A DNA stretch of 64,000 nt from Podarcis liolepis (Eukaryota): the NCBI GenBank assembly GCA_965112155.1, contig OZ218103.1. One strand, written 5' to 3'. Within the stretch, counting starts at the first letter, position 1, and every line of letters begins with the position of its first letter. The notes under the pieces are model-generated. The model was not told the DNA's origin and did no database searches. It was given only the letters and a program-made list of their open reading frames with translations. Shown piece after piece: positions 5,231 to 12,643 of the stretch. A program made the position numbers and the translations under genes.

Positions 5231-8201
5231 AGGGTTTCTTAACTCCCAAGTTGTTTAATAGGAAAGGAACAATGGAGTGACTTCTGCCACCACAGTTAAG
5301 CTGGCGAAATGAAGAGAAGTTAATCTATAGTGGACTTTGCTGTGTGTAAGGACCGTGCGCTCAACTTCGTTCAGTTTAGGATGTGCTCAAAGAGGGTCGC
5401 CCCCCCCCCGTTTGTAATTGTGCCCAAGCTCCGTGTGTTTGGTTTTTTTCCTAAGCCAGGTGACTGAAAATGCTGAAATTAGCCCAATCCTTCAGCTGAG
5501 CGTAATTTATGGAGACAGTAACACATTGATTGATTTATTAAATACACGTGCTGCTCTTTCAGAGGAGCCCAAATTTATATTTGCACCAACAAATGTTCAC
5601 AATATGTTATATAAACTGTACTGTGAACACCCCTTGAACTTGATAAGGGTATTTATTGTATAAAAGGCGCCTTTATTTACACTTCTGGTGAGTGATTTTT
5701 CTTACTGGCAGTATTTCACTGATGATTTTTGTTACCTGGTTTAGCATGGCCGTATAGTGCAAGTTGCAATGTTACATATACACACTAGCAAGAGGTTTGT
5801 GTGACTCCAGTCCCATTTTATGCTATCTACAAACCATACACTTTAATTTTTAAAGTTAACATGCACTGATAATGCCGAAAAGCAGTAATCTATACTGTCT
5901 GCAAAATTTTCAAAAAATAAGGTTATGTTGGTTTGTAAATGAAACCTGGGAGCAGGAGAACATTGGTAAGGCCTCCCCCCTCTAGCGCCTCCATATTATT
6001 GCTTTTAGAGCTCTCCAGGAGTTTAAGGGCAAAGATCTGAAGTGGGGAACCTCCTCAATAAGTGCCCTGCAATGTGCAGTCCTTATTAAAATCCCAAGTA
6101 CTTTATACACTTTGGCAAATGTTAGTCATGTGGAAGTTTAGTTTTAAAAAATACAGTAGACAATGCAAGATTGACTTCAGCCAACCTTCCTTGCTCTAGA
6201 GCTCTATTATTTGTCTGATAGGGTGTAAAAACCATGTGTAAATCATATTTATACCTGCTGTGACTAACAGGGTCTGTTGTCTTGTCACCACCTGCCACAG
6301 TTCATTTCTGTGAGCCACATCTGTACATAATGTTAAGTAAATATTAATTCTCAGCCTCATCAATTAGTGTTTTCTGTCAATTAAGCTAAGGCTGCAATCC
6401 TATATACTCACTTACCTGAGAGCAAGTCCTAGTGAACTCAGTAGGACTTACTTTAAGTAGATATTAAAGGATTATTTTGTAAGACTGGAATATACGTACA
6501 CTTGTGAGGGAGTATATTTTAGAAATAGGCAGTAGAATGTGTTTTTCTGGAAAATGTAATAATACTATAAATTGATTGATATCTTGATTTGACATGTTTG
6601 AGTACAGTTAGTAAATACAACTTTTTAAAAGTATGGATTGTTTCCAAGGCTGCATCAGTTGGGTATCCCCCAACCCTGGAGGGGTGATTAGATTCTGTTG
6701 CATGCATGGAAGTCCCTTGCTTCAGCAGAGCTAAGGTGTTGGATCTGGCCCTAGGTCATATTAATCTTACATGCCGAAATACTCTGTTAGGGAAACATTA
6801 AGCAAAATGCAGTTATGCTGCAATCCTAAGCACACTTATCAGGGAGTAAGCACCATTAGCTAGAATGGAATTTACTTCAAAATAAGTAAGTACAAGTTCA
6901 AACACATTCAAAATTTTACTTGGAGATTGTTTTTATTGGATTCAATTACTCATAAATGTTTTAGGATAGGACTTGGGAACTCAATAGCATGTACTTCACT
7001 TGTTTAAAAGTTAAGGAAAGTAATATAGGTTTCACACTTCTCAATATTTAGGACAACAGTATGTTCCATTGAAAATAAGTGTATTTATGAATTTAAAACT
7101 ATGAGTGGTATATAATGATATAATTATTTGTTTATTTAAAACACTACTATACCACCCTTCATCAATAATACTGGGGTATTTTAACAGGATAATACTATTC
7201 CAATAAGAGCAATACAATAAAATACATTACAGTCCACAGTGGACCAGCCAGATCATGCCCAGGCTCCATATTAACAGCCCACAAATAGGCATTTATTGAA
7301 GAGTGAAGAGGTAGGTCTCTAGACAACATTGAAAGCCTATCAGAATTAATGCTTGTTTTATTTTGGGGGGTGGGGAGGGACATACTTAGAAGCTGGGCAC
7401 AATGATGGAAAAAGCCTTCTTGATAGTCACAAGATGCAGTTCAGCAGACTACAACACAAGTGGGAGGGCTCTATAAAAGTGCTTAGCACTCAGACAAGTC
7501 TATGATATCCAACTCCAAAGCTGTTTATATTTAATGTGCTTCTGCTTCTAGACAAAGTTCATTAAAACTTTAAAATTGCCCAGTTTGACTGATACTAGGT
7601 CCATTATTTTACTAATTAATTTCAGGAAGCAGAAGGTGTATTGTTAGAAGTGAAGAAATGTTCTGCTACATTTCATGCAGGATAAACCTTCTAGCAACCT
7701 CTGTAGATTGAAAAATATGTTTGTTCCAAATTAGGCCAGACTAGGTGCATGACAGAATCCTGTGTCAGTCACCTATTCCTTGTTTTGAAATCTGTCTGCA
7801 ACTAATTTTAGATGGTGATGGGAAATTGAAATGATGAATTTTCTACCTTTACCACTAGATGTCTCTTCCTCCAGAGATAATGGTATTGTGCTGCTGCCCA
7901 AATGATGCCCTAGTATGGTATACACATCTATTGTGCAACTGTGTATGACCTTATTTTGTAATAGCGTCTCTTGATTATTATTTTTTGCATGTAGTGACAG
8001 CCAGCAAACCACAATGGTAGTAGAGAAGGCTAATACCCATCAGATCTCTTGCCTCTTGTGGCTGCTTCATTTAATGACAATGTAGTATAACATGAAAATA
8101 AAATACCATTACAACTCAATTTCAGTTTCATCTTCAGTCAAGTAATTCACTGATTTTGTTGGTCTTGCATTTAATATTCTTCCAATTTTTTTCCTTTCTA
8201 G

Positions 8202-8335
8202 TGACTCCCCTTTGCCTGTTTCTTCCCGTGTGTGTTTTGTAAAGTTCCAAGAACCTGACTCCGCAGTTGTGGCTCAGCATCTGACAAATACTGTATTCGT
8301 TGACAGAGCGTTGATAGTCGTACCATATGCAGAAG
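8202..8335 (+). CDS. SRSF11: SRSF11 coding exon 2 (RRM)
   Basis: DSPLPVSSRVCFVKFQEPDSAVVAQHLTNTVFVDRALIVVPYAE; polypyrimidine tract + TAG, donor G|GTTTGT; 134 nt. Confidence 0.96.
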
Positions 8336-10683
8336 GTTTGTGAATTGTTTAATGATCTATGAAGCCATAGAATAATGGTACTAAATCCTGATGTAGCTTA
8401 ATAGCATGAAGTTTAGCACGTAAAACATTGAAGCTATTTACCTATTTAAAACCCTTGGTATACTGACACTGCTTGCTTTTATCCAAAAGTGAGACAATTA
8501 ATTATTCAAGCAAAAGCTGGAACTTGCCTGTCAGTCTTTTTGCAAAGGCATTTAGAATATTGATATGTTTAAGCAGCATTATTTGAATTTTTGTTTCATC
8601 AGGCCCCTTCAAGATAAGCAGTCTTTTAAAACTGATACATTTAAACAAGATAACTTGCATTAAGTAACTTGGCATGTGTTGTCGTATGATTCATTCTCAT
8701 AGAGAGTGAGTGGAAATGTGCTGCCAGTTACAAGGCAAAGTTCTGTTTACCGTAGTTGACAATAATAATAAAAAAACACCCTCAGTACAAATTCTGGTAC
8801 ACCAAGGGTTTGATCTCAATTAGACAGAAAATATATCCAAAGGTGCTAAATGAGCACTGGGTGTTAGATCTTATTCCGCATTTTCTTGTTCAGCCTTGCT
8901 ATATTATCTAGAATTTCACTAAATAATAAACTCTTCTCTCTGTTATTTGTGTGTGTGATTTTTGTAGTGGAGAAGGCAAATGCAAAGGCCCTTCCAGATG
9001 ACTGAAACAGTGGGGTCCTCTGCAGCTACAGGGGATTCTAGACATTAACTAAAGGCCAGCAAGCACTCAAGTCCCCAAGTGTTTTCCTGGTGTAATCACT
9101 TGTTAACAACATTTTTTTCTCTTCTTTTTCTTACATTTTTAGGGTGTTACAGTAATTTGAAAACAATGAGCAGGGTTTGGGAACATAATTCAATAATTCA
9201 GTACCAAGAAGACTGCTCTTCTAACGAGTTCTATTAAACTTCTGTAGATTTCATCACAACTATTTCAAAGGCACCATTAATTGATAAACTAGTTAAATCG
9301 CTTGATTACAGTAAAATATGTGTAGTCTTGCACTTAATTCCTGCACTCACAGGCAGCTGGATCTCATGGAGGTCAGTGGGATTTAAGCAGCCTAACTATG
9401 CAAGATTGTAGCGCAAGTCTTACCATTACCTGTTTTTATAAAAATATGTTTACACATTAACAAGGCAGAGGAATATGCAGTGTGCAGACCTGGCAAAGAC
9501 CTAGTTGTAGGATATTCCTCACTGAAGCTATAAGTAGTGTAAACAACTTTTAATCCTGATCAGTTTTAAATTTCAGAGTAGAATATTTTTAGAATGTAAT
9601 TGCTTCTGCTTTAGTTTGGACAAAATAACAATTGAGATATAATTTTTCTTGCATGAACATCTACATATCAGGGCCAAACTAGATATGACAGTCTTTGCAT
9701 TTAAACATAGACTTTCCCCAGTCACATAGAAAGAGCAGTTTGGAAGTTGATCTAGAACAGTTAAAGAACTGAAGTGCACAGAATCCTTCCTGTACCTGCA
9801 GCTTAACTTCCTTGCAATCTGTCCCTCTGTGTTTTTATCCTTATCTGAGCTCTGATGCTGAAAATATGCTCAATGTTTGCAGAAAGGGGCTGTGGGGAGG
9901 TAAGAGCAGGTTGGGGTAGGTTTCAGGGGCTCTCACAGTTTTGCTTTTATTATTAAAAATGGACCCGGACACCCTTTTTATGTGATTGGGGGAGGACTGC
10001 TGCACTCATATCTAGTTTGGCTCTAATAGCAGCAGTCCTGCCCTGTCAATTTCATCAAGACTTAATTTGGCTCCTACAGAATTACCATGTTTTAAGCGTT
10101 TAATATTTTTATCTTTGAAAATACAATGTTCATTGTGCTAGAAAGATAAATCTGGCACTAAGAAATCAGCCAAATATATCACTTGAGAATCTCCTGAAAT
10201 TTGTTTAATGCAACTTAAGTAGCTATTATTGACAGGGCCTCAATTTGGTGGTGTAGGATATGTGTACAGCTGTGTAATTTGTGCGAGAACTATAATTGTG
10301 GACACAGTACTGTATAAGAATACTAGGGGTTTTTTCCTGTGAACTTTAACTACTTTGTTCTTGCAATTCTTCCACGTCTATGGAATCAAACAAACTACTC
10401 ATCAGTGGTTCATATTGCAAGAACCCCATTTCTGCTAGGTACTTAAGCATCATTCAGTGAGGTATTTCAAATTGAGTGGGATTGTTCATATGCATTGAAC
10501 CACATGCTTAAGTACTCTGCTGAATTTAGATCTTGATTTTTAACTAGTGGTGATGGGTTTAACATTACCTAACTGGAAGTATTAAAATACTGTACTGTGC
10601 TAATCACAGCTCCCTGTATCACTTACATTCCTGTTCTTTGTGTGTTCATATATCTTGGTGTTGGCTATTGCTTTGTGTTCTAG

Positions 10684-10758
10684 ACTTACACAAAGTTCAC
10701 GGTAAGGCATAGTACTATAAACTTCACTATGAAATTCAAGGATTTGGAAGGAACTCAG
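10684..10758 (+). other. SRSF11: Candidate SRSF11 alternative exon with two donors (18-nt in-frame microexon to 10701; 75-nt stop-containing form to 10758)
   Basis: U-rich tract + TAG (10681-10683); donors ACG|GTAAGG at 10702 and CAG|GTATTA at 10759; long form has in-frame TAG at 10710-10712. Confidence 0.5.
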
Positions 10759-10856
10759 GTATTAACAGTGCCTTTTGGTGGGGTTGTGTAGGTTCTTTGG
10801 TTAATGTTTGTTTATTTTGTCTGTTTCTTTTTCTTCATTTCTACACATTCATGCAG

Positions 10857-10914
10857 TATTTCATGGTTCTAACAAAGCAGCAGTAAAAAACACTTGACGC
10901 ATGAAAATTAACTG
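10857..10914 (+). other. SRSF11: Candidate SRSF11 poison (PTC) cassette exon, 58 nt
   Basis: Long pyrimidine tract + CAG (10854-10856), donor CTG|GTGAGG, in-frame TGA at 10895-10897. Confidence 0.5.
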
Positions 10915-11272
10915 GTGAGGGGCCTCATTGCTTTTTTAAAAATTGTAGTTTTATTTCTGAATAACTTTTTTCCTAAAAATGAGAGGATCAGATGCATGAC
11001 TACTTAATGGATGCAGATCTTCTATGAGGTGTCTCAGGATAAGAGGATTTTTAGTTAGATGCCAGAAATGTTATAGTTGCACTATTTGTGTGTAAACATA
11101 AATAATATCCTCTGAGACATAATTTTGCATGCAAAATTATCCCATAATCTCTATAGATAATGTTTATATTGATGCATTAATGCCCTGTATCTAAATGACC
11201 TTCCCCCCTTTTCCCACCATAACTTTTGGTATTGAAATTATGACAGCTCAGTGACAGAAGAAAGATAACAGT

Positions 11273-11524: not shown

Positions 11525-11746
11525 TGTATTTCAGAAACGCTACTGGTATTTGCAAATATATAGTACAGTTGTCTTATTGAACTCTCATATTGGGGGCTTG
11601 GGCACATTAACAGATTAAGCCATACGTATAGGGCTTTTGCTGTTGGATAAAATTACAACGATCAACATTACTCTTTGTCCCACATTGGACCTCTTTAGTA
11701 AGGTTATTCTCTATTCAGGTTAGGCAGTAAAACTAGTCCCTTGCAG

Positions 11747-11851
11747 GCTACAAGGCTGCAGAGCAGAAATTTCTCCTGAAATGGCAATATGCAGCAGCAT
11801 TCTTGGTATAGTAAGCATGACAAACAGTGGAGCATGTACTTTACTGCACAG
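11747..11851 (+). other. SRSF11: Candidate SRSF11 poison (PTC) cassette exon (alternative acceptor at 11719)
   Basis: Strong donor CAG|GTAAGG at 11852; in-frame TAG TAA (11809-11814) then TGA. Confidence 0.55.
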
Positions 11852-12026
11852 GTAAGGAATGTGCCAAAATTTAGGCATTTACATAAACACATACACATGG
11901 ACACATATGCAGAACCTTTATTTGAAGCTCTGTGGAGACCTTCATATCCATGTGACATGTCAGCAAAAGCCCTACATTTTTTCTTACCTTCGCTTAAGAT
12001 TTACAAAATTGTATGGTAGGTGTAAA

Positions 12027-12302: not shown

Positions 12303-12533
12303 CCTTTTGTAGAGAAAAAGGAACAGTCAAATTTTCACACATTGAAGTTTCATTCTGGCATACAAATTAATGATAAATTATTAAGAGATCAAACATTGTA
12401 TTATAGCCAACATAAGTACTTGCAGCAAACTCAGGTGGTGTTTCAGGGAGACATTTTCTGGGTGTATTTGTGTGTGTGGTTTTTTAAAAAATCAGTGATG
12501 AGTGTCTTCTAATGCAAAGCTGTCTCTCTGCAG

Positions 12534-12643
12534 GAGTTATTCCTGATGAGACTAAGGCTTTGTCTCTCCTGGCACCAGCTAACGCTGTGGCAGGTCTTCT
12601 GCCGGGGGGTGGACTCCTGCCTACACCCAACCCACTTTCTCAG
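12534..12643 (+). CDS. SRSF11: SRSF11 coding exon 3
   Basis: GVIPDETKALSLLAPANAVAGLLPGGGLLPTPNPLSQ; CAG / GTAAGT; 110 nt. Confidence 0.96.

Follow-up and report, generated by a model that had tools for sequence, protein, structure and literature searches.

A candidate 18-nt cassette in intron 2 of Podarcis liolepis SRSF11 lies among stop-codon exons

Does a short splice-like site in intron 2 of SRSF11 in the lizard Podarcis liolepis mark a neural microexon, a poison exon or a chance arrangement of signals? SRSF11 helps to activate neural microexons, and poison exons keep the level of SRSF11 itself in check. The initial annotation of the window, a stretch of 64,000 nt from contig OZ218103.1 (assembly GCA_965112155.1), had proposed that a single acceptor at 10684 may switch between an 18-nt microexon activated by SRRM4 and a stop-containing exon of 75 nt, forming a feedback loop within the microexon machinery. 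We weighed this proposal against the structure of the gene, annotated proteins, RNA reads and published catalogues.

The plus strand of the window carries SRSF11, with coding exon 1 from 4681 and later exons out to about 22900. Coding exon 2 (8202–8335, +), which encodes the second half of the RRM and whose peptide is identical to the lizard and snake versions, ends in phase 1, and exon 3 (12534–12643, +) is entered in phase 1. An 18-nt exon between them therefore inserts six residues, DLHKVH, in frame and with no stop; the gene identity, phase arithmetic and insert first assigned to this site are correct. Intron 2 is 4.2 kb long and includes two unreadable runs of N. The RRM covers residues 12–78 (Pfam), and in a predicted structure of low confidence (mean pLDDT 56; RRM blocks 69–85) the insert would enter behind residue 87, in the stretch that separates the final strand (81–84) from a helix (93–100). 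According to this model, six extra residues should lengthen the linker, leave the RRM unbroken and be tolerated. A structure search turned up no solved structure of the SRSF11 RRM. Two other features border the region. A head-to-head gene, presumably LRRC40, runs leftwards from 2989 (–), starting 1.7 kb upstream of SRSF11, with a leucine-rich-repeat-like first exon. At the end of intron 2, the translation of 12366–12533 (+) is 68–76% identical to the alternative N-terminus of annotated mammalian isoforms of 422–454 aa; ATG is absent at the place of the mammalian alternative start and the frame is broken ahead of exon 3. The conservation here looks non-coding, and the 422–454 aa mammalian isoform appears doubtful as a real protein.

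Read from the sequence, the candidate 18-nt cassette occupies 10684–10701 (+) and is followed by the donor ACG/GTAAGG at 10702, which has a GTRAG core and a G at –1. A candidate 75-nt cassette (10684–10758, +) shares the acceptor, ends at the donor CAG/GTATTA at 10759 and contains an in-frame TAG at 10710–10712. Upstream lie a UGC at –15 to –13 (10669–10671, +), a candidate SRRM3/4 element, and an AG-free zone of 74 nt with a U/G-rich tract (10608–10683, +), closed by the acceptor TAG that ends at 10683. The positions originally given for the UGC, the acceptor, both donors and the TAG all hold. Motif matches predict branch points at 10625 (–59) and 10648 (–36), and also at 10603 (–81) and 10572 (–112). 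The tract had been described as U-rich, and it is rich in T (27 T, 12 G, 7 C and 4 A in 50 nt), but its composition is U/G-rich rather than CU-rich, and the 160 nt upstream of 10684 contain lone UCU triplets and neither UCUC nor CUCU. Scored against a nine-position donor consensus, the donors at 10702 and 10759 each fit six positions, level with those of exons 1 and 2 and below those of most other SRSF11 exons. The site is present in a single copy in its own genome. RBFOX motifs, present at 10993 and 11126, show no enrichment (intron 2 has 3, against 13 across 18 kb).

An early stop more than 50–55 nt upstream of a later junction usually leads to NMD. Since the TAG lies 46 nt before the 10759 donor, with another 110 nt to the exon 3/4 junction and more junctions downstream, NMD is predicted for the 75-nt form under this usual rule. 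The stop is in frame, as the initial annotation stated, but it is not a special property of the 75-nt form, because plain read-through past the 10702 donor meets the same codon. All routes from 10684 except clean inclusion of the 18 nt run into a stop, including the 18 nt joined to the downstream exon at 10857.

We compared how exon 2 is continued in annotated proteins, using 434 SRSF11-like sequences: the best 120 of 850 matches, the best 120 of 1,181, and 30 clusters that each contributed no more than 15 members, the largest sampled clusters having 458, 476 and 103 members. These sets cover rare or brain-only reptile isoforms poorly and under-sample NMD targets. DLHKVH, or any motif like DLHKV, occurs in 0 of the 434. 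The end of exon 2 is present in 402 proteins, 317 of which run straight into exon 3; three carry 5, 11 or 13 extra residues that correspond to exon 3 extended upstream, 42 continue into retained intron sequence and 40 more enter other short tails. Of the 320 proteins in which both exon ends are present, 317 thus lack an insert, and all 48 full-length squamate SRSF11 proteins, picked by name, join exon 2 directly to exon 3. The proteins sampled, which reach from lungfish and coelacanth to mammals, show no change in length at this junction. Searching proteins with the open frame 10563–10709 gave no candidate. Pattern scans of metagenome contigs found 0 loci for the cassette and 0 for the conserved exon at 10857, and hence are uninformative on conservation.

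The same tails reveal other stop-codon exons in intron 2. The translation of a conserved exon at 10857–10914 (+; VFHGS...), starting 155 nt downstream of the 10702 donor, is matched by 11 annotated truncated isoforms from mammals and a crocodile; its donor would be CTG/GTGAGG at 10915. Further upstream, two alternative acceptors 30 nt apart, at 8968 and 8998 (within 8968–9006, +), serve one exon and lead to the same early stop, the former matched by one platypus tail (P0026) and the latter by three turtle or bird tails (P0037, P0233, P0235). The tails matched at 10857, 8998 and 8968 all end within a few codons, and these neighbours are conserved at the translated level. By contrast, the 10684 acceptor begins none of the 85 non-canonical continuations found among the 402 proteins, whereas five other such continuations are annotated. 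On these tail matches, annotation has repeatedly caught stop-codon exons of intron 2 across amniotes and has not caught the 10684 acceptor, and the exon at 10857–10914 is better supported than the 10684 cassette. Another two common tails of exon 2, seen in 11 and 10 proteins, go unmatched in readable intron 2. Two further sites were seen in the intron. At 9143 (+) a very strong acceptor (90% pyrimidines, AG-free zone of 63 nt, stop after 31 codons), to which 0 of the 402 proteins have a matching tail, is a candidate further poison exon; 11699–11851 (+) is a candidate cassette with an AG-free zone of 67 nt and an early in-frame stop, followed at 11852 by CAG/GTAAGG, the strongest donor of readable intron 2 (eight of nine consensus positions).

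We tentatively favor, while stopping short of calling it probable, the explanation that the 10684 acceptor is one more rarely used poison or decoy cassette of the intron 2 cluster and would mostly lower SRSF11 output. This reading draws on the match of three readable intron 2 acceptors (10857, 8998 and 8968) to annotated truncated amniote isoforms, from the greater density of long AG-free acceptors in intron 2 (7 of 126 YAG sites, 10684 among them, vs 7 of 503 in the rest of the gene), from the stops on all but one route, and from published precedents. Published work describes a pair of poison exons in human SRSF11 that have retained introns on either side and are associated with nuclear speckles (PMC12052203), complex poison junctions plus retention in that region (10.1101/2023.11.21.568046), a mouse Srsf11 cassette whose inclusion isoform is an NMD target (PMC5311500), and a fall in SRSF11 poison-exon inclusion after neuronal depolarisation (PMC12129014). 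PMC6097662 describes decoy clusters: in splicing-factor genes, large retained introns carry groups of short cryptic cassettes that have alternative splice sites. These cassettes favor intron retention or NMD, and in normal cells they often go undetected or are rare.

Under the poison or decoy reading, the long AG-free acceptor at 10684 would recruit the early spliceosome, as its neighbors would. The spliceosome might stall there, leaving intron 2 retained; alternatively, splicing might be completed to the 10759 donor, giving the 75-nt exon, or the 18 nt might be joined to the 10857 exon and still stop. Every such product would contain an early stop followed by many later junctions, and its fate would be nuclear retention or degradation by NMD, reducing productive SRSF11 mRNA. 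The clean 18-nt in-frame product, the only route that alters the protein, would be a minor by-product. Against the poison or decoy reading, no junction was seen among six reads and 0 of 85 annotated continuations begin at 10684, and two cassettes 100–170 nt apart are possible at best.

The six reads, four from X23 and two from X24, came from two single-cell runs of a near relative, of unspecified tissue, about 6/100 of each being covered. The target was 10340–10830 only, with no flanking exons, so that a fully spliced read containing just the 18 nt could not be placed. By depth bins, the X23 reads span 10443–10593, 10575–10703, 10645–10795 and the left end of the target, and the X24 reads span 10587–10737 and 10594–10671. 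No splice junction occurs in these six reads on 10340–10830, joints and loose ends staying below the listing threshold. All three reads across the 10684 acceptor are unspliced, two of them crossing the first donor and one the 10759 donor; this fits retention or pre-mRNA, and fits a pseudo-exon equally well. Two contig sets (X3, X21) hold 0 records on 10340–10830, which is no proof of absence, and contig runs of doubtful RNA status were left out of the evidence for expression or retention. The fit of one X23 read covers 129 of its 151 letters and stops at 10703; the other 22 letters are unplaced, on a side that is not given. Its end would suit a splice at the first donor, except that it overshoots that donor by 2 nt, beyond what a join to exon 3 (expected end 10702) or to 10857 (expected end 10701) explains, and the unplaced part may lie at the other end; an adapter or template-switch tail at the left end would be as likely a source. 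We rejected this read as a first-donor splice on the grounds that it is single, overshoots by 2 nt and has an ambiguous unplaced side.

It is somewhat unlikely, and still the strongest of the rival explanations, that 10684 is a pseudo-exon, in which signals resembling splice sites have paired up by chance within a U-rich intron, with no meaningful use. The absence of the insert from the protein collection and of junctions from the reads would agree with this, as would donors fitting just six of nine positions, although the reads are far too few for use to be excluded, and the protein sets under-sample NMD targets. A UGC at –22 to –5 occurs at 25 of 67 comparable pyrimidine-rich YAG sites, so the UGC at 10669 adds little. 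A loose microexon pattern (YAG, 20 nt free of AG, at least 0.6 pyrimidines, UGC, a length of 3n from 3 to 27 nt, GTRAG) is expected 0.3–0.4 times per 20 kb of the gene's composition, with a 27–33% chance of at least one occurrence, and both strands of the window together have four occurrences. The gene contains eight long AG-free YAG sites that are rich in pyrimidines, vs 6.7 in shuffles. On the other side, the 74-nt AG-free zone ranks sixth among 629 YAG sites in the gene, and a tight pattern, which adds an AG-free zone of at least 55 nt to the loose one, has a single occurrence across 18 kb of the gene vs 0.04 on average in 300 Markov shuffles, its limits having been picked after the 10684 site was seen. 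The site also falls in the one intron for which regulated cassettes are known. Thus the 10684 acceptor does somewhat better than expected by chance, and the UGC on its own does not. Microexon-like patterns also occur in SRSF11 introns at 6301–6309 (9 nt, UGC, GTGAGC) and 8703–8705 (3 nt, GTGAGT), both on the plus strand; this is about the chance number.

Distinctly less plausible is a neural switch in which SRRM3/4 acting on the UGC would favor the 18-nt donor in neurons, while skipping or the 75-nt poison form would prevail elsewhere, giving feedback that is most likely limited to reptiles. In layout the cassette resembles SRRM3/4 neural microexons, which measure 3–27 nt, usually keep the frame and have a UGC enhancer and a long branch-to-AG distance (10.1101/2024.09.17.613571, PMC12871342): it shares the 18-nt length, the kept frame, the UGC at –15, the long AG-free zone and the GTRAG donor. 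The branch-to-AG distance has a median of 45–47 nt in neural microexons vs 34 nt (PMC12871342), an extended arrangement that the 74-nt zone and the branch candidate at –59 fit, and a size threshold for SRRM4 dependence near 30 nt, given in PMC11648925, would separate the 18-nt from the 75-nt form. The insert, moreover, would fall in a linker outside the Pfam RRM, where it is predicted to be tolerable. Weighing against the switch are the proteins, squamate ones included, that join exon 2 to exon 3 with no insert, and the lack of UCUC and CUCU, given that the top CLIP motifs of SRSF11 in 10.1101/798009 are UCUCUC and CUCUCU. According to 10.1101/2024.09.17.613571, an upstream CU-repeat element bound by SRSF11 and PTBP1 is not obligatory for SRRM3/4-dependent microexons, and cryptic microexons with UGC exist. 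UGC is found in 74–79% of neural microexons and is not strictly needed (PMC12871342, 10.1101/2024.09.17.613571).

The literature searched, mostly as titles and listings, holds no report of a microexon in SRSF11. We take chr3 158.00–158.04 Mb to be the position of Srsf11 in mm10. No coordinate in that interval occurs among the 2,987 mouse microexons in the MicroExonator supplements (PMC7821500), in whose table number-prefix matching worked on a control; sequence words had no match in these tables, the format of which possibly defeated part of the search. In 12 of the 19 files of PMC7935315, SRSF11 is absent from 314 human SRRM4-induced exons (the control KIF1C is present), and the sole SRSF11 event is VastDB HsaEX0057640, of 117 nt. 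Zebrafish microexon supplements gave 0 for srsf11 in 12 of 13 files, to which, with no positive control, we attach no weight; PMC4379411 does not mention SRSF11. The absences from the mouse and human catalogues count against a neural microexon shared across amniotes, though not against one confined to reptiles. An orthologous event is, then, missing at the assumed mouse position, from the human target list and from the protein collection. With a listed orthologue and the CU element both lacking, we do not file the cassette as an SRRM4 microexon. What stands of the original microexon and poison proposal is the stop outcome, the setting in a known poison-exon intron and the fit of the AG-free and branch layout; use, neural specificity, SRRM4 control and feedback found no support in the proteins, reads, catalogues or CU search.

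It is quite improbable that donor choice itself acts as a size switch, with SRRM3/4 picking the near donor in neurons, so as to add six residues behind the RRM of its own co-factor, and the far donor giving the 75-nt poison exon elsewhere, such that part of a reptile poison cluster would have turned into a coding microexon with feedback. Use of the 18-nt exon at a low level or in non-neural tissue, independently of SRRM4 and giving a minor protein variant, would accord with the G at –1 and GTRAG core of its donor, its stop-free frame and a linker predicted to be tolerant, but is likewise quite improbable given 0 of 434 proteins, no junction in six reads and the length-invariant exon 2–3 junction.

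Among known systems, the 10684 cassette appears to work like, and is a candidate member of, the SR-protein poison and decoy cassettes. With the SRSF11 poison exons and retained introns (PMC12052203, PMC5311500, 10.1101/2023.11.21.568046 and HsaEX0057640) it shares the gene, an early stop-codon cassette behind the RRM exons and predicted NMD or retention; it differs in matching none of the annotated isoforms collected and in its in-frame 18-nt route, which is missing from the matched cassettes. The decoy exons of PMC6097662 include six exons of 29–56 nt in SF3B1 intron 4 and cassettes with alternative splice sites in OGT and ARGLU1. SRSF11 intron 2 has in common with them a splicing-factor gene, several short cryptic cassettes, alternative donors, a large size (4.2 kb, above the 1 kb by which such introns are defined) and junctions that are expected to be rare unless NMD is blocked. 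For the published decoys, conservation and a role in promoting retention are established, whereas our cassette is a candidate read from sequence. From SRRM3/4 neural microexons with demonstrated neural inclusion it differs also in lacking a CU repeat, a listed mouse or human orthologue and a protein match. A precedent for cross-regulation is the 71-nt poison exon of Luc7l under PRPF40A, a microexon co-factor, which ties a small poison exon of a splicing factor to the microexon machinery (PMC11648925); unlike the 10684 cassette, that exon is described there as abundant (53% inclusion) and SRRM4-independent, with no in-frame short form.

Should the 10684 cassette be no more than a further poison or decoy exon, a known control region gains one element, and the finding is of small importance. 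If SRRM4 does toggle between a six-residue insert and decay, the cassette would let the microexon programme feed back directly on one of its own components, and would be an example of a coding microexon born within a poison-exon cluster.
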